From assembly GCF_046105845.1 (NCBI RefSeq), contig NZ_CP151004.1: 64,000 bases of DNA, one strand, 5' to 3'. The position numbers and the translations under genes were made by a program. Shown here piece after piece: positions 2,356 through 60,049 of this stretch (positions within the stretch are counted from its first letter, which is position 1; every line of letters starts with the position of its first letter). The notes under the pieces were generated by a model. The model saw only the letters and a program-made list of their open reading frames with translations, made no database searches and was not told where the DNA came from. This stretch comes from Escherichia coli. Lineage in GTDB: Bacteria; Pseudomonadota; Gammaproteobacteria; Enterobacterales; Enterobacteriaceae.

Positions 2356-2949
2356 TCATTTTTTACGTGCCAGCATCGTGGCGAAACGCAGTTTAATACG
2401 ATTACCGTTGGCGTCGGTGCGGTGCAGCTCGCCGACGTCTTCATTGTATTTCACCCTCTCCCAGCCTTCGTAATATCGACGTAATTCTCCCTCTTTGAAG
2501 GCAAACGGGAAGCCGACGGTACATGGATAATCAGCGGTATCCATCGCCGCCACAATCAGGTTGTAACCGCCAGGTTTCGTGCAACGTTGCATATTGGCAA
2601 TCAGCCCTGGGATGGTTTTAGCCTCAAGGAACATCAGCACCACAGTCGAAATAATAAAATCGTACTGTCCATCAAATGTGAGGTTATTCAGATCAACGAC
2701 CCGGGTGTGTAAATTATCCAGATTTTCAATGGACTTAATGCGCTCGACGTTGGCGATACTCATGGCATTTTTATCCCATGCGTCAACATCATAACCATTG
2801 GCTGCCAGGTAAAGACTGTTACGACCATTGCCACAGCCCAGATCCAGCGTTTTACCCGGTTTAACCACTTTCACCGCTTCCAGCACTTCAGAGTGTGTGC
2901 GGGTTAATTCATATTTATCAGTAAAATAGTTTTCATCACGAATGATCAT
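2356..2949 (-). CDS. tehB: Tellurite resistance SAM-dependent methyltransferase TehB
   Basis: 197-aa ORF with methyltransferase motif [15 protein letters not shown]; 4-bp ATGA overlap with upstream tehA. Confidence 0.93.
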
Positions 2950-3938
2950 TCTTTGTCCTCTGCTTTCATTAAAACGGCGCGCTCGGTTCTGACTAACAAT
3001 TTTCCCTGCATCAGAAGCGCAAAAGTACGGATGAGCAGTATTGCAATAATAAAATTGGTAAAGATAAACAGCGGCACCGCCAGCGTATGGAAAAATCCAT
3101 TATCGCTGCCACTCCCCAGATGCAAACCGGTGGTTGCCAGTGCAGATACGCCGAACGAGAAACTCCAGAATGAAGCATTAAATGGCTGGGAGAGATACCA
3201 TGGCATCAGACGTAGCATAAACAGCAGTTGCAGCAGTCCATAACCGAAAAGCATTTTCGCCAGCGTGTCACCCTCGCCGCCGTTGACGCTCAGCCAGGCA
3301 CTACAGGCCACCAGCGCAGGAGCGAGCTGAATGCCGAGTGATGTCCGCAGCGCCGTGGGTAATTCTCCCGAACTGCGCAGACGCTGCAAGATCACCGGTT
3401 CAAGGCTTAGCCATGAGAAAACGCCTGCGCCTAAAAACACCAGACCGGCGTCGGTGTAGCCCAACGCACCACAGGCCATTGCGCTGATAAAGTTGTTGGC
3501 AACTGTCGGCAGATACAGTCCAGGCGTGGTAGCTTCTTCAGGATGAGATCCGCGCCATAATCCCGCAGTTTGCCAGGCGGCATAAGCCAACTGTACAACG
3601 ACACCAAAACTGAACAGGCATACCGCCAGTGGGCGAAACCACGGAACAAAACCAATCGCCACCAGCATCGTCGTTGCCGGAAACAAACTCACAAAACTGC
3701 TCAGCACTGGATGGCGAACTTCCGCCAGCACGCTATGCGGAAAGCGTATGAGTCGGGTAATAAATGCGCTAGTCAATAATCCCCAGATGATCATCGCCAG
3801 AATCACCAGCCCATCCCCTAACCAGTGGCTGACCTGCCAAACCTGGCTGGCATAGCGCCAGGCAAATCCCATCCCTATCGTCCCCAACACAATACCAAAG
3901 TAGCCTGCCGGCAAATTGAGCACTTTATCGCTCTGCAT
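2946..3938 (-). CDS. tehA: Tellurite resistance / dicarboxylate-transporter-family membrane protein TehA
   Basis: ORF track gives 366 aa; remembered TehA start [15 protein letters not shown] corresponds to ATG at 3938 (330 aa). Confidence 0.9.
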
Positions 3939-4061
3939 CTTCTTACTCATTTTGTTTAATTTATAAAGTATATTTGAAATGCATTTTATGGAATTTTCTC
4001 GAGCATAGCCAGAGCCGCAGAATTTGCTACGGTTATAGTAAGTCACCTGTGGGAAAACGCT

Positions 4062-5042
4062 ATGCGCAAATATCGTCTAAGTGAAGAACAGCGAGCCTTT
4101 AGTTATCAGGAAGATGGCACTAAAAAAAGTGTGTTATTACGGCAAATTATCGCCATTAGCGATTTTAACGATGTGATAGCAGGAACCGCTGGCGGCTGGA
4201 TCGATCGCGAAACGGTGTTAGCACAGGAAGGAAATTGCTGGATTTACGACCAGAATGCTATTGCGTTCGGCGGAACGGTGATATCCGGGAATACGCGTAT
4301 CACCGGCACCAGCGTGCTGTGGGGAGAGGTTTACGCAACGGATAATGTCTGGATCGATAATAGTGAAATCAGCCAGGGTGCATATATAAGTGACAGTGTC
4401 ACCATTAGTGACTCATTAGTTTGCGGTCAATGTAGAATATTTGGTCACGCCTTAATTGATCAACATTCTATGATCGTCGCCGCACAAGGCTTAACGCCCG
4501 ACCATCAACTCCTGCTACAAATTTATGATCGCGCGAGGGTTAGCGCCTCGCGTATTGTCCACCAGGCACAAATTTATGGCGATGCCGTCGTCCGGTATGC
4601 TTTTATTGAACATCGCGCCGAAGTTTTTGATTTTGCCAGTATTGAAGGTAATGAAGAGAACAACGTCTGGCTATGCGATTGCGCTAAAGTTTACGGTCAC
4701 GCGCAGGTGAAAGCTGGCATAGAAGAAGATGCCATTCCGACGATTCATTACAGTTCACAGGTGGCGGAATATGCCATTGTGGAAGGTAATTGTGTGTTAA
4801 AACATCATGTCTTGATTGGCGGAAATGCCGTGGTATGTGGCGGACCGATTCTGCTCGACGAGCACGTTGTCATACAAGGTGAGAGCCGTATTACAGGTGC
4901 GGTGATAATTGAAAACCATGTGGAGTTAACCGACCACGCCGTCGTTGAAGCCTTTGATGGCGACACGGTTCATGTCCGTGGCCCAAAAGTCATTAACGGC
5001 GAGGAGCGCATTACGCGAACGCCGCTGGCAGGGTTATTGTGA
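4062..5042 (+). CDS. ydcK: Uncharacterized hexapeptide-repeat protein YdcK
   Basis: 326-aa ORF, repetitive left-handed beta-helix-like sequence; K-12 synteny. Confidence 0.85.
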
Positions 5043-5573
5043 ATCGATAATACGCGCGTATAAGTTCACATCATCATAGGCATCATTCAGGAACTCAGCC
5101 TGTTTCAGACAACCTTCAAGGATAAAACCATTGCGCAAAGCGACTTGGTTGCTTTGCGCATTGTCCACCCGACATTTGATCACGAAGCGTCTAAGTTCAC
5201 CAGACTGAGCGTAATGATGAATCAATGCCTTCAGCGCCTGAGAAATGATCCCCTGCCCCTGATGAGATTCGTCCAGCCAGTAGCCGATTTCAGCGGTTTT
5301 ATTCAGTGGTTCAATACGATTAAACGAGATAACGCCGATAAGTTCATCTTCTTTGAAAATCATGAACATTTTGGCATAGCCGCGTTGATGCAACATCACA
5401 TTACCCTGCACCGTTTTTCGCGTGTCCTCTTCACTCTGAACAAACTGCGGCCAGTTTAGCGACTGCTGTAACCAGGTTTTATTTTTACAGATTAACTGAT
5501 AAAGAGGTATGACATGACTTTCTGCAACAGCATGTAATTCAAGTGATTCACTTACTTTTATCGTTTCAGTCAT
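5034..5573 (-). CDS. rimL: Ribosomal-protein-L7/L12 serine N-acetyltransferase RimL
   Basis: GNAT-family ORF; start trimmed to [10 protein letters not shown] (179 aa); 3' end overlaps ydcK 3' end by 9 bp. Confidence 0.88.
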
Positions 5574-5635
5574 CTTATCTCCAGTCAATCCATGCAGTTG
5601 TTAAAAAAGCCGCCTGGTTGGCGGCTTAGGAAAGT

Positions 5636-5860
5636 TTACACCTCTTTGACGCTCTCCTGCTGCAGGATTTTGAGCATCTCATCTTTTAACTGTAACTTTT
5701 GTTTTTTCATGCGGACCACTTCCGCATTGTACCCTCGACCGTCGGAACCTTCCTTTCTGGCAATTTCATGATCAAGTTTATTGTGTTTATCGAACAAGGA
5801 CATAAAGCGAGGATTTTCGTTTTTCAGACGGGATATTAAATCTCGGTATTCTGGAAACAT
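5636..5860 (-). CDS. ydcH: DUF465-like small protein YdcH
   Basis: 74-aa product from MFPEYRDLISRLK...; K-12 synteny. Confidence 0.8.
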   Translation of the reverse strand: MFPEYRDLISRLKNENPRFMSLFDKHNKLDHEIARKEGSDGRGYNAEVVRMKKQKLQLKDEMLKILQQESVKEV

Positions 5861-5999
5861 ACGCACTCCCTGTTAGTGGCTGACAAGGTGTATCTGAAAT
5901 ACACACTATCAGATTACTCATTTAACTTAGGGAAAAATGCGAGCGGGATCGTGTTTAACCAGACGGCACCTCCCGAAGAAGGTGCCGAAGAAAAAACGA

Positions 6000-7655
6000 T
6001 TAACTCATCACGCGGTCGTCAACATACTGACGTTTATCCGGCGCTGGCGGGAAATACTGATACAGCCATGTTTCACTGATAGCGTCGCCCTGACAACGCA
6101 GATACATCCGCATATCGACCGGATCAGTGGAGTCCGAAGTCGGATACCAGTCAAACTGAATACGATAACCATCAATGGGTTCAATATAGAGAATTTCGAT
6201 TTGCTTCGCTTCCCCACTGGAAAGCGTAATCACCGGCTCAATGCCTTTTGGTGCGGCAGCTTTCAGATCACCACCAACGAAATCGACGGCAAAACGACGC
6301 GCCCATTTTTCGGGATAGTGTTCACCTGGCGCCCAACCTTCCGGGAAACCGCCCATGCCGGTACGCGTCGCCATAACGCGCGCTAATGGGCAATGAACAG
6401 GCGGTTGCCCACTCCAGTACAGACGATACTGGAATGCAAACTCATCACCCGCTTTTACAGCTTTTTCTGGCTGCCAGAAGCAGACAATGTTATCCAGCGT
6501 TTCGCCCGTTGTTGGGATTTCCATCAGGCCGATGGTGCCCTTACCCCACTTGTTACGCGGTTCCACCCACAGACTTGGGCGTTTGTTATACCAGCCCATA
6601 ATGTCCTGATAATGAGAGAAATCACGATCCAGTTGCAATAAACCAAACCCTTTCGGGTTGTTGTCGGTGTAAGCATTGAACTGCAATTTTTGCGGATTGT
6701 TCAGCGGACGGCAAATCCACTCGCCGTTGCCCCGCCACATGGACAGACGATCAGAGTCATGGATTTGCGGATGAATGGTGTCGCACATCCGACGTTCATT
6801 AGTACCGCAGCTGAACATGCTGGTCATCGGCGCAATGCCCAGCTGTTTAATGTCTTTGCGCGCATACAGGTGATTTTCCACATCCATAATCACCTGACTT
6901 TTCTCACAATGGATAGTGAACTTATAGGCACCAGTAATGCTGGCGCTATCGAGCAACGCATAAACGGTAAAGGTGGTTGCCCCCGGTTTTACCGTATCAA
7001 ACCAGAAGGCGGTAAAGTCGGGGAATTCTTCTTTACTGTCGGTGTAAGTGTCGATCGCCAGGCCGCGAGCCGATAGACCGTATTGATATGTATCATCAAC
7101 CGCGCGGAAATAACTCGCGCCGAGGAATGATACGACATCACGGCGCGCCAGTTCGGGGGCTTTAAACACGCGAAAACCGGCAAAACCGAGATCACTTTGC
7201 CCTTCTAATTGTTTGGTATCAACACCCGCATCGTTGTATTTGAACAACTCCGGGCGAAAGTGAATTTCACGCGCCAGATGTGTTGCGGGATCAACAGAAA
7301 ACATACGAACGCGGCGACGGAATCCCATTCCCATATGGAAGAACTGAGCGTCCAGTTGACGGTTCTCAACGTTATGCCAGAGCGATTTTTCGGCGTCGTA
7401 TTGAATACTGTTATAAGCCTGCGGCGTCATTGTCGCCAGAGTGTCAGGTAACGGACGCGGCGCACCACGCCACGCGGTTTGCGCTAAGTCGTGCGCCATT
7501 GACTGTAGAATGGAGAAGTCAAAACGCTGGGTTTGCCCGTCGGCAATATCAGAATCTGCCGCGAATGCCGCCTGAGAAAAAAGAGAAGCAATGCCGCTGG
7601 TACCGCACACGGCGGCCATAGCCATTGAACCTTTAATAAATCGTCTACGATCCAT
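6000..7655 (-). CDS. opgD: Glucans biosynthesis protein D (OpgD/MdoD), Tat-exported
   Basis: 551-aa ORF; N-terminal twin-arginine motif DRRRFIKG; matches OpgD. Confidence 0.93.
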
Positions 7656-9223: not shown

Positions 9224-9439
9224 AGTATCTGCCTCCAGTGGTCAGTAATCTGGAGTGTAGGTAACCGCATTCACTCCGGCGGGAAGAATTTACAAACTGT
9301 GATCTCGCCGCGAAAACATCAATATTATCCATTTTGCTGTAACATAATTGCTTTAATTGTTAATAATATTTTGCAATCAAGTTATCATAATCAAACAACT
9401 TCACTTGTCAGCGACACCGCTTCGTTTTTAACATCGCTT

Positions 9440-10363
9440 ATGGAAAAAAATAGTCTGTTTAGTCAGCGCATCCGTTTGCGCCACCTTCATACATTCGTAG
9501 CTGTCGCACAACAAGGAACTTTGGGGCGCGCGGCTGAAACCCTTAATTTGAGTCAACCTGCGCTCTCTAAGACATTGAATGAACTGGAGCAACTGACGGG
9601 CGCTCGCTTGTTTGAGCGTGGTCGTCAGGGGGCGCAACTTACCTTACCCGGCGAACAATTTTTAACGCATGCAGTCAGAGTTCTTGACGCCATCAACACT
9701 GCCGGACAGTCGCTTCATCGTAAAGAAGGTCTTAATAATGATGTCGTCAGGGTTGGTGCACTACCTACTGCGGCACTGGGGATATTACCTTCGGTTATAG
9801 GTCAGTTTCATCAGCAACAAAAAGAGACGACCTTGCAAGTTGCAACAATGAGTAACCCTATGATTCTGGCAGGTTTAAAAACCGGGGAAATCGATATCGG
9901 CATTGGTCGGATGTCAGATCCTGAACTGATGACCGGGCTTAATTACGAACTGCTGTTTCTTGAATCGCTGAAGCTGGTTGTCCGCCCTAATCACCCGCTA
10001 CTTCAGGAGAACGTAACGCTAAGCCGGGTGCTGGAATGGCCGGTTGTTGTATCACCAGAAGGCACTGCGCCACGCCAGCATTCAGATGCATTAGTGCAGA
10101 GCCAGGGCTGTAAAATTCCTTCGGGCTGTATCGAAACACTGTCTGCTTCTCTATCTCGTCAACTTACGGTTGAATACGACTACGTGTGGTTTGTCCCTTC
10201 TGGCGCTGTAAAAGACGACCTGCGTCATGCCACGCTGGTGGCCCTACCTGTTCCGGGTCATGGTGCAGGCGAACCGATTGGAATACTGACCCGCGTAGAT
10301 GCGACGTTCTCTTCTGGTTGCCAGTTGATGATTAACGCTATTCGAAAATCAATGCCGTTCTGA
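9440..10363 (+). CDS. ydcI: LysR-family transcriptional regulator YdcI
   Basis: ORF track start over-extended; ATG at 9440 (MEKNSLFSQRIRLRHLHTFVAVAQQGTLGRAAE, LysR HTH) gives 307 aa. Confidence 0.9.
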   Translation: MEKNSLFSQRIRLRHLHTFVAVAQQGTLGRAAETLNLSQPALSKTLNELEQLTGARLFERGRQGAQLTLPGEQFLTHAVRVLDAINTAGQSLHRKEGLNNDVVRVGALPTAALGILPSVIGQFHQQQKETTLQVATMSNPMILAGLKTGEIDIGIGRMSDPELMTGLNYELLFLESLKLVVRPNHPLLQENVTLSRVLEWPVVVSPEGTAPRQHSDALVQSQGCKIPSGCIETLSASLSRQLTVEYDYVWFVPSGAVKDDLRHATLVALPVPGHGAGEPIGILTRVDATFSSGCQLMINAIRKSMPF

Positions 10364-10368
10364 AAGGT

Positions 10369-10392
10369 GAAGGGATCTGTCGATCCCTCCTT
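10369..10392. terminator. Hairpin between convergent ydcI and trg (agggatc-tgtc-gatccct)
   Basis: 7-bp stem in 37-bp convergent intergenic region; weak T-runs. Confidence 0.4.
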
Positions 10393-10400
10393 AAACATTT

Positions 10401-12041
10401 TCACACTGTAGCGAAACTAACTGGTTCACCAGCTCCGCGAGGTACTGCCGACACGGAATGTTTGTTCAGACGAAATACGTCCACCGCCTCAGCTAATCGT
10501 GCCGCCTGTTCTTCAAGGGACACCGCCGCCGCTGAGGCCTCTTCTACCAGAGAAGCATTCTGTTGCGTCACCTTATCCATTTCAGAAATCGCCTGGCTAA
10601 CCTGCGTTATGCCCCTACTTTGCTCATCCGAGGCGGCGGCAATTTCCTGCATGATATGTGTGACACTCGCGACGGCATCAACAATAGTGCTCATGGTTTT
10701 CCCGGCCGTGGCCACCTCATCCGATCCCAGGTCAATTAACCTGACTGATTCACTGATCAAGCCTTCAATCTCTTTCGCCGCCTGAGCGCTGCGGCTTGCG
10801 AGTGTCCGTACTTCGCTGGCGACAACGGCAAATCCACGCCCTTGCTCACCCGCTCGCGCGGCTTCAACGGCAGCATTCAGTGCCAGAATATTCGTCTGGA
10901 AAGCAATACTGTTGATGACGGCGGTGATCTCAGAAATTTTCTTCGAACTCGTGGAGATAGCGCCCATCGTTTTTACTACACCGGAAACCGTCTGCCCGCC
11001 ATTGCAGGCTTTAATAGAAGCCTCTTGCGCCAGTTTGCTGGCATGATGCGCGTTATCTGCATTCTGTTTCACCGTCGCAGTAAGTTGCTCCATGCTGGCG
11101 GCAGTTTGTTCGATAGCCGCCGCTTGTTCTTCGGTGCGAGATGACAGGTCCGCATTGCCAGCTGAAATTTCGCTGGTGCCACGATAAATCTCTTCCGCAC
11201 CCTGTCGAACAGTCCCTACTGTCATCCCCAGTGAATGCTGCATTTGCTGTAAATGACGACTTAAGCGACCGATTTCATTACGACCTGCCGGATCATCATT
11301 CATCGTCAGATCGCCACTGGCGATTTTTTCAATCCGTTGTGCGGCATGTTGCAGTGGACGAATGACAATCCGACGTAGCACCATAAATGTTATCAGTGTC
11401 ATGACCAGGGCAAGCACAAACGCGCCAATCATGAACATCCCACCCAGGCGGGTGCGCTGATGGGCCAGTTCCGCCAGTTGGTTGGCTCTGGTGCTACGTA
11501 TCTTAACGGCTTTGCTCAAAATATCGGTATAAGCATTATCCAGCGGTCGGATCTGCTCACTTTCATGATTGATAATCGCTTCAAACATGCCATTTTTGGC
11601 ATATTTCAACATCGGTTGCATACCCGTGATATAAGCCTGGAAGCGTTGATTTAATTCAGTGTCGAGGGCTTCATCAGCAGGTGTTTTCACCGACCGATTC
11701 TGATAAGCACGATACCCTTGCTGCGACTGTTTAATCTCCGATTCGGCTTGCGCAATATTTCGCTTCATTGCTTCCATTTCCGCAATACGACTCGCTGCCC
11801 CGGCCTGAATCATATTGACCCGGGCTGAACGCAAAAAATCTGAACTGTTCGCTAACCCGGTCCGAATCTCAATTTCCGCAGTAACATCCCGCTGATCGCG
11901 ATCGGCCTGCCAGAGGAAATAGCCAGCCAGAGCTGAACTTAATGCGAATAGAACTAAGATACCGCCAAGAATGCAGGCAAATAACGGAACCAGCCTGATG
12001 TGATGCAAAAAACCTAATCGCTGTGAGGGAGTTGTATTCAT
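10401..12041 (-). CDS. trg: Methyl-accepting chemotaxis protein III (ribose/galactose sensor) Trg
   Basis: 546-aa ORF with MCP signalling domain and methylation region ([21 protein letters not shown]); K-12 synteny. Confidence 0.93.
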
Positions 12042-12080
12042 TACCGTTGTCTCTCTTCCAGGTTTACTCCTGATAGAAAG

Positions 12081-12107
12081 TCATCGGCACTTGACGGTAA
12101 TTTCTTA
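12081..12107 (-). promoter_or_regulatory. Putative sigma-28 (FliA) promoter for trg: TAAG-N15-GCCGATGA on minus strand
   Basis: Reverse complement of 12081-12107 reads taag aaattaccgtcaagt gccgatga, close to FliA consensus TAAA-N15-GCCGATAA, about 40-65 nt upstream of trg ATG. Confidence 0.5.
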
Positions 12108-12334
12108 CGACCAAAAACCTCTTTGCGTCACATTTTTACAACAATTATGGCAGAGAAGATTAATGCCATTGGAATGAAGAGAGTAACGAATGATTAAACT
12201 GGCTAAACCGAATGACGAAAAATTCTGGAAAACAGCACGCAATTTCGTCAGGTGATTATTTTCGTCCCTAAGGAAACCACATAGGATGCTCACGGGTGCC
12301 TGAGACTTTCTGTTTTCAGGCTAACCGGGAATCA

Positions 12335-12381
12335 GAAAGACGAAGGCCCCGACCGATATTTCTATCAACCGAGGCCAACGA

Positions 12382-12395
<14 letters not shown>
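12335..12395 (-). ncRNA. sokB: Approximate position of SokB antisense RNA (antitoxin of hokB), inferred by locus architecture only
   Basis: hok/sok loci encode Sok antisense to the mok translation-initiation region; boundaries not determinable by eye. Confidence 0.3.
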
Positions 12396-12589
<194 letters not shown>

Positions 12590-12653
12590 GGGCAAGCGCG
12601 GGGATTTTCCCCGCGCATCTGACTAGCGGATTCATTTTCTCATGGCACCCCTT

Positions 12654-12833
12654 TTACACTTCAGTAGTGCATGTTTTTTTCGATGCACTAATAGAACCAT
12701 CATTACAGACAAATTTGCCGCCTGCCGTACAGTGTGAGATCCCCCCTTTAGAACCAGAACAGGGTTTGCGCCCGGCATCGGCATAAAAGGAAACAAGCGC
12801 TCCCATAACCAAGATAAGTGCCAGTTTTTTCAT
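12654..12833 (-). CDS. ydcA: Small secreted/lipoprotein-like protein YdcA
   Basis: 59-aa product [59 protein letters not shown] with SD (ggaggt) upstream; missed by ORF track. Confidence 0.8.
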
Positions 12834-13003
12834 ATAACCTCCATGGTTTATCGAATCTTATGTTCGATTTGAACGTTATACGCTGGTTTATTTTGATACC
12901 GTTGATGAGATCAAAGATCGGGTGAATTGATTAAAGATAAGCCAGATGGACGTATGGACCAGGATTATGGTTTTATTTGTCATACAAATAAATATAATAG
13001 GCG

Positions 13004-13068
13004 CTTCCGATGTAGGCCCGTATTCTTCGCCTGTACCACGGGTCGGTTTTAGTACAGGCGTTTTCTTT
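13004..13068 (+). ncRNA. rydC: RydC small regulatory RNA (Hfq-dependent)
   Basis: cttccgatgtaggcccgtattcttcgcctgtaccacgggtcggttttagtacaggcgttttctt matches remembered RydC sequence nearly base-for-base; located between ydcA and cybB as in K-12. Confidence 0.85.
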
Positions 13069-13077
13069 AAATATCCT

Positions 13078-13608
13078 TCAGGAACGTTTACGCGGCATCA
13101 TGCGTAGAAGTGTGTTGTCCTTCCAGAAATAATGGTGTGCCAGTGCAGCCGCAGCGTGCAACCCGATGACAAAGTATCCCATATTCGCCAGCGTTTCATG
13201 CCACGACTTTAAGCTATCAACCCGTTCGAAATTGGCCTCTGATGCATAAGGCATCGTCATACCAAACGCAAACCACGGGTTACCCCGGTTATACATCATC
13301 ACCAAACCAATCACTGGCAGCGCAATAAACAGGAGATAGATCACCAAATGTCCCAAATGCGCCAGTCCCGTCATCATCGGTTTTGGCTTAGGTATAATCG
13401 GCGGGGTTGGGTATTTCAGCCTTAACAAAAGACGAACCACCATCAGCACGAGAATTGTGATGCCACAGGAAACATGAATCATGTTGATGAGCGGCCGATC
13501 GCTACGTGGGAAGAAACCACGAAACTCCATTGCGCAATACGCTGCGATAACCAGCAAAAAGACCAGCCAGTGAATGCTGATTTGTAACCTTGAGTATTTA
13601 TTTTCCAT
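13078..13608 (-). CDS. cybB: Cytochrome b561 CybB
   Basis: Start trimmed to MENKYSRLQISIHWLVFLL (176 aa); His-rich heme-binding TM protein. Confidence 0.9.
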   Translation of the reverse strand: MENKYSRLQISIHWLVFLLVIAAYCAMEFRGFFPRSDRPLINMIHVSCGITILVLMVVRLLLRLKYPTPPIIPKPKPMMTGLAHLGHLVIYLLFIALPVIGLVMMYNRGNPWFAFGMTMPYASEANFERVDSLKSWHETLANMGYFVIGLHAAAALAHHYFWKDNTLLRMMPRKRS

Positions 13609-13796
13609 AACATTTCCTGCTTTAAAACAATTTGCCGTTAACATAACGAGCTTTTCTTAAAATTTCATTAAATATTGTTCACCCGTTTTCAGTACGTTAC
13701 GTTTCACGGCAAGAATGTAGATTGCCCATCCCGCCATCCTGGTCTAAGCCTGGAAAGGATCAATTTTCATCCGAACGTTCCTGACAGGAGAAGACC

Positions 13797-14798
13797 ATGA
13801 GTAAAGTTGGTATTAACGGTTTTGGTCGTATCGGTCGACTGGTGTTGCGTCGATTACTTGAAGTCAAAAGCAACATAGACATTGTTGCTATTAATGATCT
13901 CACTTCCCCAAAAATTCTCGCCTACCTGTTGAAACATGATTCAAACTACGGACCGTTCCCCTGGAGCGTTGATTTTACGGAAGATTCACTTATCGTTGAT
14001 GGAAAAAGTATCGCGGTTTACGCCGAAAAAGAGGCTAAAAATATTCCATGGAAAGCGAAAGGCGCAGAAATCATTGTCGAATGTACTGGCTTTTATACCT
14101 CCGCCGAGAAATCGCAGGCGCACCTTGATGCTGGTGCGAAGAAGGTGTTGATTTCCGCCCCTGCCGGTGAAATGAAAACCATCGTTTATAACGTCAATGA
14201 CGACACACTGGATGGCAACGACACCATTGTTTCCGTGGCGTCATGCACCACTAATTGTCTTGCACCGATGGCCAAAGCCTTGCACGACAGTTTCGGAATA
14301 GAAGTCGGCACGATGACGACCATTCATGCCTATACCGGCACTCAGTCACTGGTGGATGGTCCGCGAGGTAAAGATCTACGCGCTTCACGTGCAGCGGCAG
14401 AAAATATCATTCCCCACACTACAGGTGCGGCAAAAGCCATTGGTCTGGTGATCCCGGAACTGAGCGGCAAACTGAAAGGTCATGCGCAACGCGTGCCGGT
14501 GAAAACAGGTTCGGTGACTGAGCTGGTATCGATTCTCGGAAAAAAAGTGACTGCCGAAGAGGTGAATAACGCACTTAAACAAGCAACCACCAATAACGAG
14601 TCATTTGGTTATACCGATGAAGAAATAGTCTCTTCCGATATCATTGGCAGCCATTTCGGTTCGGTGTTTGATGCCACGCAAACGGAAATTACCGCCGTGG
14701 GCGATTTACAACTGGTGAAAACGGTCGCCTGGTACGATAACGAATATGGCTTCGTCACGCAGCTTATTCGCACCCTCGAAAAGTTCGCTAAACTCTGA
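13797..14798 (+). CDS. gapC: Glyceraldehyde-3-phosphate dehydrogenase GapC, full-length (333 aa)
   Basis: Intact ORF with GAPDH motifs ([21 protein letters not shown]); at K-12 gapC position. Confidence 0.9.
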
Positions 14799-14806
14799 CG
14801 CGCAAA

Positions 14807-14835
14807 GGCGGAGGGGAAAACCTCCGCCTCTTTTA
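14807..14835 (+). terminator. Rho-independent terminator after gapC (ggcggagg-ggaaaa-cctccgcc + TCTTTT)
   Basis: 8-bp GC-rich stem followed by T-run, between convergent gapC and aldA. Confidence 0.7.
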
Positions 14836-14839
14836 CTCA

Positions 14840-16279
14840 TTACGACTGTAAATAAACCACCTGGGTCTGCAGGTATTCATGCAAGCCATGTTTGCCATCT
14901 GCGCCGCCAATACCCGATTTACGCCATCCGGCGTGGAATCCTTGCATAGCTTCGAAGTTTTCACGGTTGATGTAAGTTTCACCAAACTTCAGCCCTTTAA
15001 TGGCTTTCATCGCGACGTTCAGATTTTGGGTATAGAGTGATGAGGTCAGGCCGTAATCACTGTCATTAGCCATTGAGATAGCCTCTTCCAGCGTGTCAAA
15101 TGCGACCACTGGCAGCACCGGGCCAAAGGTTTCCTCGTGCATAATCGACATTTCCTGGCGAACATCCAGCAGCAATGTCGGCGGATAATAATATCCTTTC
15201 CCCTCTACCGCTTTGCCACCCAACGCCACTCTCGCCCCTTCTTCTACTGCGCGCGCCACTTTTTGCTCGACCCTTTCCAGCGCCGCGGCGTTAATCAACG
15301 GCCCCATCGCAATGTCGTTGCGTTCAGCGGGGTTACCAAATTGAACCGCCTGCATCGCTTCACCCAGCCGATTGACGAACTGATCATAAATGCCTTTCTG
15401 TACATAAACACGTTCTGCACAGTTACACACTTGCCCACTATTAATGACGCGTGAATCAACGATGGCTTTGACTGCCAGTTCAAGATCGGCATCGTCCATT
15501 ACGATAGCCGGTGCTTTACCCCCCAATTCCAGGCACACTTTGGTGATGTTTTTCGCCGCAGTCGTCATAATCTTTTCACCTGCAGAGACGCTGCCTGTCA
15601 TACTGACCATTGCGACCTTTGGGTTACCCGCCAGTTCTTGCCCAACGGTTTCACCACGCCCCAGAACAAGGTTAAACACGCCGCGCGGAAGGCCTATTTC
15701 ATCGACGATTTTGGCGAATGCAATCGCATTGTTTGGCGTAAATTCACTGGGTTTAATGACGATGGTATTACCGGTCAAAAGAGCGGGAGCCATTTTGCGG
15801 GCAATGAGGAAGAACGGGAAGTTCCACGGCAGAATGCCGGTAGTCACGCCAAGCGCACGTTTAAACAGAAGAATATTTTCTCCTGGACGATCGCTTTGAA
15901 TAATCTCGCCTTCATAACGCCGTGCCCACTCCGCCATGTAATCGATATAGTCCGCAGTAAAAGCCACTTCGACTTCAGCCAACTGCTGGATCTTGCCCCC
16001 TTCTTCAACAATCAGCGCACTGATTTCACTGGCGCGTTCGCGGATCCCGGCGGAGATTTTGCGCAACCAACTGGCGCGTTCAATAGCAGGCAACGCTTCC
16101 CATTCTGGTTGTGCACGTTCTGCTGCATCGATTGCTTTACGGGCATCCTCGGCCTGACCATCGGGAATGCGGGAAATGACCGCCTCTGTAGCAGGGTTTA
16201 CCACATCAATCCATGCGTCTCCACGCCAGGTAACAAACTGTCCATCAATATACATAGGATGTTGAACGGGTACTGACAT
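14840..16279 (-). CDS. aldA: Lactaldehyde/glycolaldehyde dehydrogenase AldA (NAD-dependent aldehyde dehydrogenase)
   Basis: 479-aa ORF, aldehyde dehydrogenase signatures (catalytic Cys region VCNCAERVYVQ, ELGGKAP); K-12 synteny. Confidence 0.93.
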   Translation of the reverse strand: MSVPVQHPMYIDGQFVTWRGDAWIDVVNPATEAVISRIPDGQAEDARKAIDAAERAQPEWEALPAIERASWLRKISAGIRERASEISALIVEEGGKIQQLAEVEVAFTADYIDYMAEWARRYEGEIIQSDRPGENILLFKRALGVTTGILPWNFPFFLIARKMAPALLTGNTIVIKPSEFTPNNAIAFAKIVDEIGLPRGVFNLVLGRGETVGQELAGNPKVAMVSMTGSVSAGEKIMTTAAKNITKVCLELGGKAPAIVMDDADLELAVKAIVDSRVINSGQVCNCAERVYVQKGIYDQFVNRLGEAMQAVQFGNPAERNDIAMGPLINAAALERVEQKVARAVEEGARVALGGKAVEGKGYYYPPTLLLDVRQEMSIMHEETFGPVLPVVAFDTLEEAISMANDSDYGLTSSLYTQNLNVAMKAIKGLKFGETYINRENFEAMQGFHAGWRKSGIGGADGKHGLHEYLQTQVVYLQS

Positions 16280-23416: not shown

Positions 23417-23460
23417 TTGTGTATCACATGCTAAAAATTAGAACGTCCAGCATCAGGACG

Positions 23461-35744: not shown

Positions 35745-36680
35745 ATGTCGCAAAATCAAGAAATTAGTAAGAAAGAACAATACAACCTGAACAAATTACA
35801 AAAACGTCTGCGTCGTAACGTGGGCGAAGCCATTGCTGACTTCAATATGATTGAAGAAGGCGATCGCATCATGGTTTGCCTCTCCGGGGGTAAAGACAGC
35901 TATACCATGCTGGAAATTCTGCGCAATTTGCAGCAAAGCGCGCCAATCAATTTTTCGCTGGTGGCTGTTAACCTCGATCAAAAGCAACCGGGCTTCCCGG
36001 AACACGTTCTGCCCGAGTATCTTGAAAAGCTGGGCGTTGAGTACAAGATTGTTGAAGAGAACACTTACGGTATCGTGAAAGAGAAGATTCCGGAGGGCAA
36101 AACCACTTGCTCACTGTGTTCTCGTCTTCGTCGCGGAATTCTTTACCGTACCGCAACGGAACTGGGAGCGACGAAGATCGCGCTGGGTCACCATCGTGAC
36201 GATATCCTGCAAACGTTGTTCTTAAATATGTTCTACGGTGGCAAGATGAAAGGTATGCCTCCGAAATTGATGAGCGATGATGGCAAACATATCGTGATTC
36301 GTCCGCTGGCCTACTGCCGCGAGAAAGATATTCAGCGCTTTGCCGATGCAAAAGCGTTCCCGATTATTCCGTGCAACCTGTGCGGTTCACAGCCTAACCT
36401 GCAACGTCAGGTGATTGCTGACATGTTGCGTGACTGGGATAAACGTTATCCGGGGCGTATCGAGACGATGTTCAGCGCGATGCAGAATGTGGTGCCGTCG
36501 CATCTGTGCGATACCAACCTGTTCGATTTCAAAGGCATTACCCACGGTTCTGAAGTGGTTAACGGGGGTGATCTGGCGTTTGATCGCGAAGAGATCCCTC
36601 TACAACCGGCGGGTTGGCAGCCTGAAGAAGATGAAAATCAGTTGGATGAGTTACGACTGAATGTGGTTGAAGTGAAATAA
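35745..36680 (+). CDS. ttcA: tRNA 2-thiocytidine(32) synthetase TtcA, full length
   Basis: 311-aa ORF with PP-loop SGGKDS and CxxC motifs (CSLC, CNLCGSQ). Confidence 0.95.
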
Positions 36681-41150: not shown

Positions 41151-41714
41151 TCAACGGCTGCGCTTAGCGTGGCGCTCCCAGTTTTCTTGCTTCGCCTGCG
41201 CCGTTTTACGTAGTGCGACGTAACACGCCCCGCTGCCGCCATGATACGGTAGCGCGGTGCAATATGCCTGAACATCATCAAATTCGGTCAGCCAGCGCGC
41301 CACATAGCTGCGGACAATATTGGCATGCGATTTATCATCCCGCCCTTTACCATGAATAATCAGCACGTTACGCAAACCATCCGCCATGGCTTGTTGAATG
41401 AAACTGAACATCATTTTGCGGCACTCTTCCACCGGCTGGCGCAAAAGATTCAGGCTCGCCTGTTGCGGATATTTACCACTGCGCAGCTTATCCAGCACCC
41501 CATGTTGCAACCCTTCCCGCCGAAACTCCAGCGGCTGACTTAGCGGGATGATGTCGAGAAATCCGGTGGTGAGGAAATTATCAAGTTGCAGCGTGTCAAT
41601 ACGCTGCGGCGCACGTTGGTTACGCGTTGGATGCCAGTGGACATCTGTAGCACGTTTCAGCGGCTGGACATCTTCCATGGCGTCAAGAAACAGCGATTTG
41701 TCGTCAAGGTTCAT
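41151..41714 (-). CDS. smrA: Smr-domain endonuclease SmrA (YdaL)
   Basis: 187-aa ORF with Smr domain (LIIHGKG); K-12 synteny. Confidence 0.88.
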   Translation of the reverse strand: MNLDDKSLFLDAMEDVQPLKRATDVHWHPTRNQRAPQRIDTLQLDNFLTTGFLDIIPLSQPLEFRREGLQHGVLDKLRSGKYPQQASLNLLRQPVEECRKMMFSFIQQAMADGLRNVLIIHGKGRDDKSHANIVRSYVARWLTEFDDVQAYCTALPYHGGSGACYVALRKTAQAKQENWERHAKRSR

Positions 41715-41908
41715 GTAACCTCCTATGCACCTTCACACGTCGTGATTCAGACGGGTTAATTGTTCATACTTACTGCATCGTTCCCTTCACAGATTGAAAC
41801 AATACTCTACTTCATACCTGTGAGTATCTGCGCAGGCGGGGCATTTTATACTAGCCTGTTAGCAGTATCGAACAGTTTAGCCCGAGTTTAATTCAGCACA
41901 GGCTCCGA

Positions 41909-43423
41909 TCAGGATGATTTATTCATAGCAGGAACCAACAAAAATGCGATAAATAACAGACCACTGATTAGCAGAAAGGTATCCGAAAATGCCATAGTTT
42001 GCGCCTCCCTCAGCATCAATTGACTCAATAATTTGGTTGAAGCCAGTATTTCCGATGTCTGGTCACTTCCACTGCGATTAAAAAACAAAGCACTTCTGGA
42101 AATGAAGTCATTCACCGTATGGGGAACAGAAACCATTTTTTCACTCATTCTCGAAAAATGAAAATTAGTTCGATTATTGAGAATAGAGCCACACAGGGCA
42201 ATACCAATCGCGCCCCCAAGATTACGTGTTAAATTAAATACACCAGAGGCTAACTTCAGCCGTTCTTTTGGAATTCCCCCCAGCGTTAATGTTACGATGG
42301 GGGCCATCGCAAACTGCTGCGAAATCCCTCTAATTGCCTGTGGAAACAGTAACTCCTGCCATCCCCATTCGTGGGTTATAGGGGTAAAAAGATACATTGA
42401 AAACACAAATCCACCCAGCCCCGCCATCAACAGCCATCGCAGATTTATTTTTTTACTTAACCAGAAGTAAAAGGGAACAGAAAATAACTGGAAAATACCT
42501 GTTGTGCAAACGGCAAAACCTATCTCTTCGGCATTTAATCCGCGAACCTGTCCCAAAAACACAGGTATTAAATATACAGTAGAGAATATCCCAACCCCTC
42601 CAGAAAAAGAAAAAAAACATCCCAGCGTGAAATTTTTATCCTTAAAAGCATGAAGATCCATTATCGGATTGGATATTGTAAGTGTACGCGCAGCAAATAA
42701 AATAAAACTCACCAATGCCAGAACTGATGTCAGCAAAATAGTATTATCATCCAGCCATCCCCAGCGCGCTCCTTCTTCAAGGGTATATTCCAGACATCCC
42801 AGTGTCATGGCCAACAGGATAATACTCGGATAATCAGCAACTTTCAGTAAAGAGAGATCAGGTTTATCAAAATTAACCAGAAAAGGAATACTCAAAACTA
42901 AATATATGCCAGGTAATATATTGATATAAAATAGCCATCGCCAGTCGAGGTTATCAGTGATCCAGCCCCCCAGAGTTGGCCCTAGCGTCGGTGACAGTGA
43001 GGCCAGCGCACTGACTACCGCAGCAGCCAACCCCAACTCTTTACCCTGGTAATAAATAAACGCCGTCGTGAAAACTAAAGGGATCATGGATGCGCCAGCC
43101 GCTCCCTGTAAAGCACGAAACAAAATCATGATCTGAATATTCCATGCAAGTCCACACGCGATACTCATTAAAGTAAATATTCCCGCGGATAGAGTAAAAA
43201 GCCAACGAGTGGAAAATACCCGTGACAGCCACCCAGAGAGCGGAATAACAATAATCTCAGCAATTAAATAGCTGGTCTGAAGCCAGGCCATTTCGTCTTT
43301 ACCTGCGGACAGACCACCACCTATTTCATTTAGGGATGACGATACAATTTGAATATCAAGCTGAGCAATAAATAATCCCATACACATACTGGCGAAAGCA
43401 ATATGTTTACGCATAGACATCAT
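41909..43423 (-). CDS. MFS drug/H+ antiporter, DHA2 (14-TMS, EmrB/QacA-like) family
   Basis: 504-aa highly hydrophobic ORF with MFS signatures; 4-bp overlap with upstream MFP gene; AT-rich relative to flanks; no counterpart at this position in K-12 (memory). Confidence 0.85.
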   Translation of the reverse strand: MMSMRKHIAFASMCMGLFIAQLDIQIVSSSLNEIGGGLSAGKDEMAWLQTSYLIAEIIVIPLSGWLSRVFSTRWLFTLSAGIFTLMSIACGLAWNIQIMILFRALQGAAGASMIPLVFTTAFIYYQGKELGLAAAVVSALASLSPTLGPTLGGWITDNLDWRWLFYINILPGIYLVLSIPFLVNFDKPDLSLLKVADYPSIILLAMTLGCLEYTLEEGARWGWLDDNTILLTSVLALVSFILFAARTLTISNPIMDLHAFKDKNFTLGCFFSFSGGVGIFSTVYLIPVFLGQVRGLNAEEIGFAVCTTGIFQLFSVPFYFWLSKKINLRWLLMAGLGGFVFSMYLFTPITHEWGWQELLFPQAIRGISQQFAMAPIVTLTLGGIPKERLKLASGVFNLTRNLGGAIGIALCGSILNNRTNFHFSRMSEKMVSVPHTVNDFISRSALFFNRSGSDQTSEILASTKLLSQLMLREAQTMAFSDTFLLISGLLFIAFLLVPAMNKSS

Positions 43424-44451
43424 CTCTCATCAACACTGACGGTGACGGACAGTCCCGGGCGAAGAAGTTGCTTTAATTCCTTTGCGTCGTCAAATGCAAT
43501 CCGTACCGGGACACGCTGAACAATTTTGGTGAAATTGCCAGTGGCATTTTCTATCGGAATCAAGCTGAAACTGGCTCCTGTCGCTGGGGAAAGGCTTTCA
43601 ATGTGACCGTGAAACACTTCCCCTTTGAGAATATCAGCACGGATCTCAGCCTTCATTCCTGGCTTCATTCCCGCTATTTGGTTTTCTTTATAATTTGCAT
43701 CAACCCACAACTCACTGACTGGTACTAGTGAAACTAACGATGTGCCGCCTTCCACCCAACTGCCTGTATGGGCGCTGCGGTTTGCGACAATGCCATCAAT
43801 CGGCGCACGAACAAGGGTATATTCCAGATCCAGTAGTGCCTGAGTCAAAGCGGCCTGAACTTCTTCGATACTCGCACGTGCGTTTTCTTCCTGAGCAGAT
43901 AAAACTGCCAGCCGTTGCTTCTCCACCATGAAATCGTTCGCGGCTTTGCGCTCCTTTGCTGCGACCTGCTGGTAGTCAAACCTGGCGTTATCAATAATTT
44001 GTTGCGATATTGCCGCTGATTGTGCGAGTTTTTCATAACGTTCAGTATCTCGCAGGCGCTTTTGCTCCTCATGTTTTACTGCCTGCCATGTTTCACTGGC
44101 ACTTTGAATTATCGACTGCTGCATCGCAATAGTGGCTTGAATGCTTTCGAGATTGGCTTTGCTACTTTTTATTTTTGCCTCAAGCCTGGCGACATTTGCA
44201 CGATAATCCCGATCATCGAGACGCAGGATAATATCGCCTTTTTTTACGCTCTGATTATCGCGCACCTCTATAGCAGAAATATAACCAGAAACTTTACTTG
44301 CCACCGTGGTGATATTACCACCAATGTAAGCATCATCCGTCGTCTGTATAAATCTTCCTTTACTTACCCACCAGATAAAAAAGACAACGCCAGTCAAAAG
44401 AATACCGATCGCTACCACCCCAATAAGCTGTTTTTTAGAAATTATCATCAC
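43420..44451 (-). CDS. HlyD/EmrA-family membrane fusion protein (periplasmic adaptor)
   Basis: 343-aa ORF with N-terminal TM anchor, long coiled-coil segment and beta-barrel/lipoyl regions typical of EmrA-like MFPs. Confidence 0.85.
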   Translation of the reverse strand: MMIISKKQLIGVVAIGILLTGVVFFIWWVSKGRFIQTTDDAYIGGNITTVASKVSGYISAIEVRDNQSVKKGDIILRLDDRDYRANVARLEAKIKSSKANLESIQATIAMQQSIIQSASETWQAVKHEEQKRLRDTERYEKLAQSAAISQQIIDNARFDYQQVAAKERKAANDFMVEKQRLAVLSAQEENARASIEEVQAALTQALLDLEYTLVRAPIDGIVANRSAHTGSWVEGGTSLVSLVPVSELWVDANYKENQIAGMKPGMKAEIRADILKGEVFHGHIESLSPATGASFSLIPIENATGNFTKIVQRVPVRIAFDDAKELKQLLRPGLSVTVSVDER

Positions 44452-44544
44452 TCTTTACACCGTATATATCCGGAAACTTGCATTCGTCATATTTAAAATT
44501 TAACATGGCTTATTTGATGGTTTCTGACAAAATACCTACTGTAA

Positions 44545-45360
44545 ATGACAATCACACTGCAACCCAAAGCATCACCAGGGCATCACATTATCGGACTGGA
44601 TTCGGAACATCTGAATGGAGGCACAGTTCCCTGGCATAAACATCTCTATGCCCAGTTGCTTTACCCGGCTGAAGGAGTCGTTCGTGTATGGGCTGGAGAA
44701 AGCGTCTGGTTAGTGCATGCCAGCAGCGCGCTTTGGCTGCCCCCACAAATGCCGCATAAGTTTGTTGCGACAGGCAACGTACTTTTAAAAACCGTACTGG
44801 TTTCAGAAGCGGAAAGTGAAACGCTGGGAAAAGTTTGCTTCATGACGGGTATTTCACCCCTGTTAAGAGAATTACTAATTGCAATTAACCAACTTCCACC
44901 GTCGCAAAGTACCACAGATAAACAACAGTTACGTTTTTCAGCCCTCGAGACACTGATACTTCAGGAAATAAAAATGGGGGTGAAAATGTCACTTGAACTC
45001 CCTTGGCCAAATGATGAGCGGCTACAGCAGCTTTGTGAGAATTTGCTAAACAACCAAGGGTATCTGCCAACACTGGATAATCTAGCGGATAAAATTAACG
45101 TCAGTAGCCGTACACTCATGCGCTTATTTGTTAAAGAGACGGGATTAACATTTCGCCACTGGGTTCAGCAAATGCACGTTATTTCTGCAGTGACGCTTCT
45201 TGATGATGGATATTCGTTGACCAAAATTGCCCATCGTCTGGGCTATGCCTCAGCTGAATCGTTCGGCAATATGTTTAAGCGTCGAACGGGCTACTCGCCC
45301 GGTAAATTTACTCGTCGATTAACGATGCATGATTATGCAATCACAAGACAAATGATTTAA
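44545..45360 (+). CDS. AraC/XylS-family transcriptional regulator with N-terminal cupin-like sensor domain
   Basis: 271-aa ORF; C-terminal HTH pair (…SRTLMRLFVKETGLTFRHWVQQMHV… LGYASAESFGNMFKRRTGYSPGKF); divergent from the MFP-MFS operon with 93-bp intergenic. Confidence 0.8.
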   Translation: MTITLQPKASPGHHIIGLDSEHLNGGTVPWHKHLYAQLLYPAEGVVRVWAGESVWLVHASSALWLPPQMPHKFVATGNVLLKTVLVSEAESETLGKVCFMTGISPLLRELLIAINQLPPSQSTTDKQQLRFSALETLILQEIKMGVKMSLELPWPNDERLQQLCENLLNNQGYLPTLDNLADKINVSSRTLMRLFVKETGLTFRHWVQQMHVISAVTLLDDGYSLTKIAHRLGYASAESFGNMFKRRTGYSPGKFTRRLTMHDYAITRQMI

Positions 45361-45430
45361 CTTATATTTTCGTGAAATCTGTCACTGAAGAAAATTGGCA
45401 ACGGATGGGTAAAACCGTTATAACACTGTC

Positions 45431-45524
45431 ACCGGTCACCAGGACCCCAGGCCGGATTTAAGACGAGGATGCACTGCTGTGTGTACTGTAGAGTCTGGCG
45501 GATGTCGACAGACTCTATTTTTTT
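45431..45524 (+). ncRNA. mcaS: McaS (IsrA) small RNA
   Basis: ...ggccggatttaagacgaggatgcactgctgtgtgtactgtagagtctggcggatgtcgacagactctattttttt matches remembered McaS 3' two-thirds and terminator; convergent with abgR as in K-12. Confidence 0.8.
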
Positions 45525-59120: not shown

Positions 59121-59759
59121 ATGAAAAATGTACTGATTCTTGGTGCTGGCGGTCAGATAGCCCGCCATGTGATTAATCAACTGGCAGATAAACAAACCAT
59201 TAAACAAACTTTATTTGCCCGTCAGCCAGCAAAAATCCACAAACCCTATCCAACTAATAGCAAGATTATTATGGGGGATGTACTGAATCATGCAACACTG
59301 AAGCAGGCCATACAGGGACAGGATGTTGTGTATGCCAACCTTACGGGGGAAGATTTAGATATTCAGGCAAATTCAGTGATCGCTGCGATGAAAGCCTGTG
59401 ATGTTAAACGTCTGATCTTTGTTCTTTCCCTCGGTATTTATGATGAAGTTCCAGGAAAATTTGGCGAATGGAATAATGCAGTTATTGGTGAACCCCTAAA
59501 ACCATTCCGCAGGGCTGCGGATGCAATTGAGGCTTCTGGACTGGAATATACAATTCTTCGCCCTGCCTGGCTGACCGATGAAGATATTATTGATTATGAG
59601 CTTACCTCACGCAATGAACCATTCAAAGGTACGATCGTATCACGTAAGAGTGTCGCAGCATTAATTACAGATATCATCGATAAACCTGAGAAACACATTG
59701 GTGAGAATATAGGCATCAATCAACCCGGGACTGATGGTGATAAGCCATTCTTCATGTAA
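59121..59759 (+). CDS. ymjC: NAD(P)-binding Rossmann-fold protein (NmrA/atypical SDR-like), intact 212 aa; corresponds to the ymjC/ymjD locus
   Basis: N-terminal GAGGQIARH dinucleotide-binding motif; single uninterrupted ORF between ycjY and mpaA. Confidence 0.7.
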   Translation: MKNVLILGAGGQIARHVINQLADKQTIKQTLFARQPAKIHKPYPTNSKIIMGDVLNHATLKQAIQGQDVVYANLTGEDLDIQANSVIAAMKACDVKRLIFVLSLGIYDEVPGKFGEWNNAVIGEPLKPFRRAADAIEASGLEYTILRPAWLTDEDIIDYELTSRNEPFKGTIVSRKSVAALITDIIDKPEKHIGENIGINQPGTDGDKPFFM

Positions 59760-60049
59760 ATCAATTATATAGCTACCATCGTACTGTACTATGTGCAGTA
59801 CGATTTATTAAACTTATTAAGGTGAACTGATCAATCAGATGCGATTAACATGTGTAGAACCAGTAAGAATAAAATACGCCATGTATATAACATTACGACA
59901 ATTCTAATATCTGCACATCAATGAAAATGCAAACAACTTCCGGCAAAAAGGTGATACAAGATCGATGACATAGCGTTGAAGAAAAGGATTTGATAATCCG
60001 CAAAATTTGCACAACACTGCCTGTAATACTTCCTGAACCAGAGACGATC

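Follow-up and report, generated by a model that had tools for sequence, protein, structure and literature searches.

A probable three-gene TolC-type efflux cassette, acquired by an old insertion between smrA and mcaS in Escherichia coli

A 64,000-nucleotide (nt) stretch of Escherichia coli DNA (contig NZ_CP151004.1; referred to here, at its full length, as the window) carries three intact open reading frames (ORFs) between smrA and the small RNA (sRNA) gene mcaS, as seen in both the ORF list and the annotation. Positions 41725-45324 of this window probably constitute a three-gene TolC-type efflux cassette that was acquired by a single old insertion replacing 111 bp. Its genes encode an inner-membrane permease of the DHA2 family of the major facilitator superfamily (MFS), an EmrA-type periplasmic adaptor or membrane fusion protein (MFP), and a divergently encoded AraC/XylS-family regulator. 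The features of the locus are as follows.

41151-41714, minus strand: smrA, the core gene on the left flank
41725-41908: left spacer, 184 bp, part of the cassette (homology to K-12 stops at 41724)
41909-43423, minus strand: DHA2 MFS permease gene, 504 aa, intact
43420-44448, minus strand: EmrA-type adaptor (MFP) gene, 342 aa from the RefSeq ATG at 44448
44449-44544: divergent control region, 96 bp between the pump operon and the regulator gene, read from the sequence
44545-45360, plus strand: AraC/XylS-family regulator gene with an N-terminal cupin/AraC-binding domain, 271 aa
45431-45526, plus strand: mcaS sRNA gene (Rfam RF00115, 113.5 bits), a core neighbour outside the cassette

The ends of the cassette are defined by alignment with 120 kb of K-12, which covers window positions 1615-64000 (positions 1-1614 lie beyond the K-12 stretch). 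Homology to K-12 ends at 41724 and picks up again at 45325, placing the junctions at 41724/41725 on the left and 45324/45325 on the right, so that a segment of 3600 bp occupies the place of 111 bp in K-12. A preliminary description of this DNA, made from the sequence alone, had reported three genes between smrA and mcaS without K-12 counterparts and had put the K-12 gap at about 200 bp; all three genes are indeed missing from K-12, where the distance from the smrA ATG to McaS is 227 bp. The same description had placed the segment at 41715-45430. The insert relative to K-12 is real, but its true extent is only 41725-45324. The left junction is just beyond the Shine-Dalgarno sequence of smrA, about 10 nt ahead of its ATG. 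On the right, regulator codons 261-271 and the stop codon (45325-45360) lie in DNA that K-12 also has. The segment is AT-rich, as claimed, although the contrast is smaller than the 40-46% against 51% GC that had been estimated by eye: its GC content is 44.1%, compared with 49.3% and 49.0% in the 10-kb flanks. GC at third codon positions (GC3) is 0.39-0.43 in the three cassette genes and 0.49-0.58 in zntB, dgcM, smrA, abgR and abgA. Both GC and GC3 are thus lower in the cassette than in its surroundings, rather than indistinguishable from them. The adaptor stop and the MFS start overlap by the 4 nt ATGA, read on the minus strand as described; in its maximal form the adaptor ORF spans 43420-44451 (minus strand, 343 aa). 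The ORF list contains no transposase or integrase within the segment, and a search of the junctions found no direct or inverted repeat with one copy at each, in agreement with the earlier statement that integrase, transposase and flanking direct repeats are absent. Hence the cassette lacks the hallmarks of a classical genomic island or mobile element (an integrase or transposase, flanking repeats). Within the genes themselves a 17-nt exact direct repeat, CAAGGGTATATTCCAGA, is present at 42778-42794 (pump) and 43812-43828 (adaptor), and both copies encode LEYTL on the coding strand; this repeat could reflect chance or a small conversion tract.

The permease scores 406.4 bits on the TIGR00711 model, over profile positions 3-480 of 485, and the curated cut-off of 230.2 is well exceeded, making the protein a member of the DHA2 family (TIGR00711; TC 2.A.1.3). 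On the EmrB equivalog model NF000391 it reaches 219.9 bits against a cut-off of 925. The pump is therefore a paralogue of EmrB and not EmrB itself. Its closest solved structure is an EmrB chain, 8zal_J (E 3e-56, 29% identity over residues 12-489). Residues D29, R109 and Q112 of EmrB were singled out in the EmrAB-TolC paper (PMC13139468), and D23, R103 and Q106 of the pump align to them in the comparison with 8zal_J. In EmrB, which has 14 transmembrane helices, the final two are separated by an extended helix bundle in the periplasm that is needed for assembly; pump residues 418-489 align to this segment with similar length and weak identity. The pump ORF is collinear with 505-aa orthologues to the last residues, with no break of frame, and GenBank records list an identical 504-aa protein as intact.

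The adaptor is 33% identical to EmrA and belongs to a large family, with 2337 representatives at E<1e-30. It passes the general RND_mfp model (135.6 against a cut-off of 94.9), and stays below the cut-offs of TIGR00998, the EmrA/EmrK model (268 bits against 390.8), and of the EmrA equivalog (207 against 563). In an AlphaFold (AF2) model, built on 61 homologues and having a mean predicted local distance difference test (pLDDT) score of 90.7, residues 5-29 form a transmembrane helix, residues 80-143 (64 residues) and 149-209 (61 residues) are the two helices of a hairpin, and there are lipoyl and beta-barrel domains; a membrane-proximal domain is absent, and nothing follows residue 342. This architecture agrees with the structural definition of EmrA-type adaptors (PMC13139468). 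The top Foldseek matches of the model in the PDB are the EmrA chains of 8zar/8zal (E 1e-27, template-modelling score 0.62). Residues 294-317 of EmrA form a conserved beta-barrel loop that builds hydrophobic rings (PMC13139468). A counterpart of this loop is present in the adaptor, where it aligns as GASFSLIPIENATGNFTKIVQR (ATGASFSLIPIENATGNFTKIVQR); EmrA L302/L303 correspond to L/I, V315/V316 to I/V and I313 to T, and confidence in the model is low at the loop. The C-terminal helix of EmrA (375-390) packs on the hairpin and forms a three-stranded coil (PMC13139468); it is absent from the adaptor, whose last residue, 342, aligns to EmrA 346. Just ahead of the hairpin tip, at adaptor residues 137-148, lies an RxxxLxxxxxxS motif (R137, L141, S148), in which, across the 61 homologues, R137 is invariant and L141 nearly so. 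Motifs of this RLS type have a role in TolC docking.

Pfam matches in the regulator are HTH_18 at 180-258 (1.4e-21), AraC_binding at 27-88 (5e-8) and Cupin_2 (1e-6). A C-terminal double helix-turn-helix together with an N-terminal ligand-binding/dimerisation domain is the arrangement that characterizes the AraC/XylS family; none of the equivalog models applied to the regulator reached its cut-off. Together with the gene orientations, these matches bear out the description of an AraC-type regulator with a cupin-like domain that is transcribed divergently from the pump genes. The 96-bp divergent region contains blocks that are conserved between Escherichia and Kluyvera, for example AAAATTTAACATGGCTTATTTGATG, and promoter-like hexamers are found at 44524-44552 (plus strand).

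By homology, then, the cassette proteins would form a TolC-dependent pump of the EmrAB type. In the EmrAB-TolC complex the stoichiometry TolC:EmrA:EmrB is 3:6:1 (PMC13139468). The corresponding assembly here would consist of one MFS monomer in the inner membrane capped by an adaptor hexamer, which would be held in the membrane by its N-terminal helix and would dock through its long alpha-hairpins onto TolC encoded elsewhere. Driven by the proton gradient, substrate would be expelled across both membranes. The ATGA overlap would couple translation of the adaptor and the pump, and binding of a small ligand to the cupin domain of the regulator would activate the pump operon from the 96-bp divergent region. 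Family models, Pfam, the matches to solved EmrAB-TolC and the matches of the fold model to EmrA all favor efflux. The layout of a ligand-induced tripartite system that had been proposed earlier is likewise what the locus holds: a DHA2 pump, an EmrA-like adaptor and an AraC-type regulator, with no outer-membrane gene of its own. Neither the cassette nor the surroundings of any orthologue examined contain a gene for an outer-membrane factor, and tolC lies outside the window. The neighbors of orthologous cassettes give no pathway hint as to the substrate, their contexts being different in every genus. By analogy with EmrAB, FarAB and VceAB, our best guesses are hydrophobic or aromatic weak acids, uncouplers, fatty acids and bile-like compounds. 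The genes already carry generic names from annotation pipelines, and the type of system is well known.

A different and rather unlikely reading is that the pair is functional but is no xenobiotic resistance pump. What it exports, possibly without TolC, would then be a metabolite or signal, endogenous or from the host, to which the regulator responds. A dedicated ligand-binding activator, in place of a drug-sensing repressor of the TetR/MarR type, would suit such a role, as would the maintenance of the cassette as a unit across genera; EmrAB is only a distant relative (29-33%), and the adaptor is without the EmrA C-terminal helix. However, the conserved neighborhood gives no sign of a biosynthetic or catabolic pathway, since the contexts differ from genus to genus, and the length of the hairpin (about 64 and 61 residues) and its RLS-type motif fit TolC docking. 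A TolC-type efflux pump thus remains the preferred interpretation.

The closest pump proteins outside Escherichia are those of Kluyvera (505 aa, 82% identical). The Kluyvera cassette has the same gene order, orientations and sizes (262/343-344/505 aa) as that of the window, and the amino-acid identities are 80% for the regulator, 68% for the adaptor and 82% for the pump. Homology at the DNA level amounts to 71% and spans 41924-45322. The chromosomal context in Kluyvera is unrelated to smrA-mcaS; the neighbors there are genes for a TetR-family regulator, an IS30 transposase, a short-chain dehydrogenase/reductase (SDR) oxidoreductase, a LysR regulator and an ABC transporter. Whereas the Kluyvera regulator ends at 262 aa, the tail of the Escherichia protein is longer, frameshifted, and encoded by DNA that K-12 also has. 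Citrobacter freundii and Salmonella enterica subsp. salamae have the same three genes, yet in other contexts, and in C. freundii the adaptor gene is split. The cassette behaves as a unit: in Kluyvera, C. freundii and S. enterica subsp. salamae the three genes stay together although their surroundings are unrelated. Similar pump proteins are found sporadically in Citrobacter, S. enterica subsp. salamae, Hafnia, Pluralibacter, Yokenella and others. When a single genome was scanned for each species, only "E. coli strain E69" and three species of Kluyvera had the pump gene. In Kluyvera cryocrescens, a transposase gene of the IS30 family (locus positions 4842-6002) reaches to within about 50 bp of the 3' end of the regulator gene, and the Escherichia junction falls at this same end of the cassette.

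Among 5426 complete E. coli genomes, 1457 have at least a piece of the cassette and 1316 have at least 80% of it; the MFP/MFS junction is kept in 1229. Named carriers include UTI89, PCN033, PMV-1 and 81009. The pump protein cluster also includes members labelled Shigella flexneri, which warn against presuming that the cassette is confined to phylogroups B2/D/F. Strain E69 has the same junctions as the window, even though its flanking genes are only about 91% identical to those of the window; its MFS gene is frameshifted. In Escherichia albertii (CP030787.2) the locus contains a window-type spacer (z=26.5), then a decayed 3' piece of the pump gene (score 53, compared with 19.6 ± 2.8 for shuffled sequences), a remnant of the 3' end of the regulator gene (38, compared with 19.1 ± 3.2), and finally McaS. 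Because the spacer and the remnants of the pump and regulator genes are found at this locus, E. albertii must once have had the cassette. The insertion is accordingly old, and common to about a quarter of E. coli, to an Escherichia lineage of about 91% identity and to the wreck in E. albertii. Among the variants in decay, one has lost 204 bp at a 10-nt microhomology, another has lost about 1.85 kb, and a truncation associated with the insertion sequence (IS) IS1 leaves only part of the regulator gene. Small deletions and IS insertion have worn the cassette away repeatedly.

The direction of the event can be read from the outgroups E. fergusonii, Citrobacter and Salmonella, in which smrA lies next to mcaS/ogt and the cassette is absent. 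Homologues of the K-12 111 bp are found upstream of smrA in E. fergusonii (z=11.3; 0 of 500 shuffles) and C. rodentium (z=9.6), and with weaker scores in Salmonella (z=3.6) and C. koseri (z=3.3). In contrast, the window spacer (41725-41908) matches none of the smrA-upstream regions of E. fergusonii, Citrobacter and Salmonella (z<=0.4), and local alignment of the K-12 111 bp with the cassette gives nothing above shuffled sequences. Since the K-12 111 bp match the outgroups and the window spacer does not, the polarity of an insertion is supported. Homology to Kluyvera DNA stops at 45322, 2-3 nt from the right junction, and a 1-nt gap about 20 nt before that junction shifts the frame of the Escherichia regulator relative to that of Kluyvera. 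The simplest sequence of events is that 111 bp of the smrA promoter region in its ancestral form gave way to the cassette and its 184-bp spacer in a single old insertion, one that would have used no recognizable mobility machinery and would have placed its right end within a few nt of the Kluyvera regulator stop. The Escherichia regulator ORF would then have run on for 11 codons into host DNA, just upstream of the mcaS promoter. The preliminary description had considered the segment an accessory, horizontally acquired island. Acquisition agrees with the outgroup test of polarity, with the lower GC and GC3, and with Kluyvera homology that ends at the junction; in other respects the island has to be redrawn, being ancient and shared rather than strain-specific, and having its right junction inside the regulator ORF. 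Two candidate divergent Escherichia outgroups turned out to be E. coli of the ordinary K-12 type and gave no information. The regulator-gene relic of 36 nt in K-12, which keeps 28 of the 36 nt (the first 12 of 12) of the last 11 codons and stop of the window ORF, was at one point taken as proof that the cassette had been lost, a proof overturned by the match of the outgroups to the K-12 111 bp. The possibility that Escherichia had the cassette at this locus from the outset and that K-12-type strains are deletion derivatives, although it would draw on this relic, on the fact that E69 has the cassette and E. albertii its wreck at one and the same site, and on the absence of mobility genes and target repeats, is very improbable given the outgroup matches (z 3.3-11.3 for the K-12 111 bp, none for the window spacer), outgroups in which smrA adjoins mcaS/ogt without a cassette, Kluyvera homology that ends at the junction, and a GC3 0.1 lower than that of the flanks.

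Several observations weigh against an old, vertically inherited and working efflux cassette. The adaptor, as described above, is under the curated EmrA/EmrK cut-off and without the EmrA C-terminal helix. A literature search found no paper on transport, substrate, TolC requirement or regulation of the cassette. Kluyvera is the closest surviving relative and need not be the donor. About 16% of carriers (228 of 1457) have lost the MFP/MFS junction and show obvious deletions. In UTI89 and E300010 the MFS gene carries a RefSeq/PGAP flag that makes it a "frameshifted" pseudogene. The ratio of nonsynonymous to synonymous substitution rates (dN/dS) of the pump and adaptor genes is 0.22-0.27 relative to UTI89 and 0.11-0.15 relative to strain E69, while that of the flanking smrA and dgcM is 0.03-0.07, values several-fold lower, so that constraint on the cassette is relaxed in Escherichia; relative to Kluyvera, dN/dS of the pump is 0.04. 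Finally, dS between the window and E69 is 0.09-0.18 in the cassette, compared with 0.31 in smrA and 0.89 in dgcM. Because dS in the cassette is lower than in its flanks, "old and vertical" appears too simple, and the haplotype has probably also moved between lineages by recombination. It may be added that dgcM is far more diverged than either the adjacent smrA or the cassette, and the contrast among the three points to a mosaic history of recombination around the locus.

The sequences do not bear out this flag on the pump gene: the copies concerned (positions 1744-3199 of the UTI89 locus and 3254-4709 of the E300010 locus) contain no indel relative to the window ORF, which is itself collinear with its orthologues. 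We therefore treat the "frameshifted" label as a probable annotation artefact. The flag, the common deletion and IS variants (with the 228 carriers that have no MFP/MFS junction), the higher dN/dS relative to UTI89, the frameshifted MFS gene of E69 and the split adaptor gene of C. freundii could together be taken to mean that the cassette of the window no longer functions, has no current role and is in the course of being lost. We give this little credence. In the window each of the three ORFs has its full length, the MFS protein aligns unbroken to 505-aa orthologues and is identical to a 504-aa protein annotated as intact in GenBank, key residues are conserved, and dN/dS is well below 1. Because dN/dS is above that of the flanks yet less than 1, and because about 16% of carriers have obvious deletions, selection on the cassette is purifying but relaxed.

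The insertion has also changed the surroundings of both neighboring genes. In carriers, smrA keeps its own Shine-Dalgarno sequence, and all DNA further upstream comes from the cassette. The gene follows the pump operon on the same strand at a distance of 184 bp, and no terminator-like fold is seen on the minus strand between the two; a promoter-like match, TCGATA-17-TAAAAT, is found in the spacer at 41871-41843 (minus strand). On the other side, mcaS belongs to the CRP regulon (PMC3634460), and a CRP-like palindrome, CGTGAAATCTGTCACT, lies upstream of mcaS at 45369-45384, with the regulator stop 9 nt before it. The McaS allele linked to the cassette differs from that of K-12 at 10 of 15 positions at 45436-45450 (McaS nt 6-20) and also at 45466 (nt 36); the stem pairing and the loop GGA motif of the first stem-loop are retained. 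The same allele is found in E69, and E. albertii has a third version. Because smrA has lost its ancestral promoter, no recognizable terminator follows the pump operon, the regulator stop is near the CRP-like site of mcaS, and the McaS allele is distinct, it is conceivable, though we think it a long shot, that the insertion rewired both genes, such that the ligand of the regulator co-controls SmrA and the biofilm/motility sRNA McaS in carriers, with UTI89 and further extraintestinal pathogens among them.

Elsewhere in the window, the claim that all other genes are K-12-like in order stands with small corrections: the DNA is collinear with K-12 over the aligned range, apart from insertions present only in K-12 and from one patch, 59260-59923, which together with 41725-45324 makes up the only window-specific DNA. 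At this patch the window has an intact ORF of 212 aa (59121-59759, plus strand), and K-12 has a truncated "NAD-dependent dehydratase" pseudogene. The window is without the Rac prophage of K-12, IS5, the feaRB-tynA-paa cluster, the IS-disrupted autotransporter region and ydbD-ynbABCD; the junctions corresponding to the K-12-only elements are at about 22367, 23446-23460, 24182, 35752-35794 and 53940. To the right of McaS, UTI89, SCU-204 and HM670 have lost abgR-abgA-abgB-abgT, and a fragment of abgR is next to ogt. The abg operon is complete in the window and is absent from the site in E. albertii, E. fergusonii and Citrobacter. In the interval from dgcM to smrA, E. fergusonii has an IclR-regulated cluster (locus positions 9284-15321), which in C. 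rodentium is beside smrA (3061-5564); it includes genes for a CoA-transferase, a thiolase, a lyase, a hydrolase and CMD. This cluster looks like the beta-ketoadipate pathway, and marks a second variable spot at the locus.

If functional, the cassette would give about a quarter of sequenced E. coli an additional regulated efflux route of the TolC type, and could help particular lineages to tolerate drugs or compounds from the host or the diet. Carriers include the known extraintestinal pathogens UTI89, PMV-1 and PCN033, and the laboratory strains behind nearly all work on efflux in E. coli are without it. The locus also provides a clean, dated case of the entry of a cassette into a chromosome without mobility genes. 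In this case the cassette replaced the promoter of a core gene, took its stop codon from adjacent host DNA, and has lasted as a presence/absence polymorphism while decaying in several lineages. Nothing here would surprise a specialist, the kind of system being well known.

Among known systems, the cassette most closely resembles EmrAB-TolC of E. coli (PDB 8zal/8zar; PMC13139468). Both have an operon in which the adaptor gene precedes the pump gene, the cassette permease aligns over nearly the full length of EmrB with equivalents of D29, R109 and Q112 kept, and neither EmrAB nor the cassette has its own outer-membrane gene. Identity, on the other hand, is only 29% for the pump and 33% for the adaptor, far from the close identity to a characterized pump that would have removed the novelty claimed in the preliminary description, and scores are far under the EmrB and EmrA equivalog cut-offs. 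The cassette adaptor is about 48 residues shorter and is without the EmrA C-terminal helix. Moreover, the cassette is accessory, whereas EmrAB is core. Regulation differs as well: emrRAB is controlled by a MarR-type repressor, EmrR, and the cassette regulator would be an activator of the AraC type. EmrKY of E. coli, FarAB of Neisseria and VceAB of Vibrio also have the two-gene architecture of an adaptor and a DHA2 pump and depend on a TolC-like channel; their likeness to the cassette is one of architecture, and no equivalog model for EmrKY, FarAB or VceAB matched the cassette proteins above its cut-off. The cassette is thus best described as a distant paralogue of EmrAB, itself uncharacterized, that carries its own AraC-type regulator.

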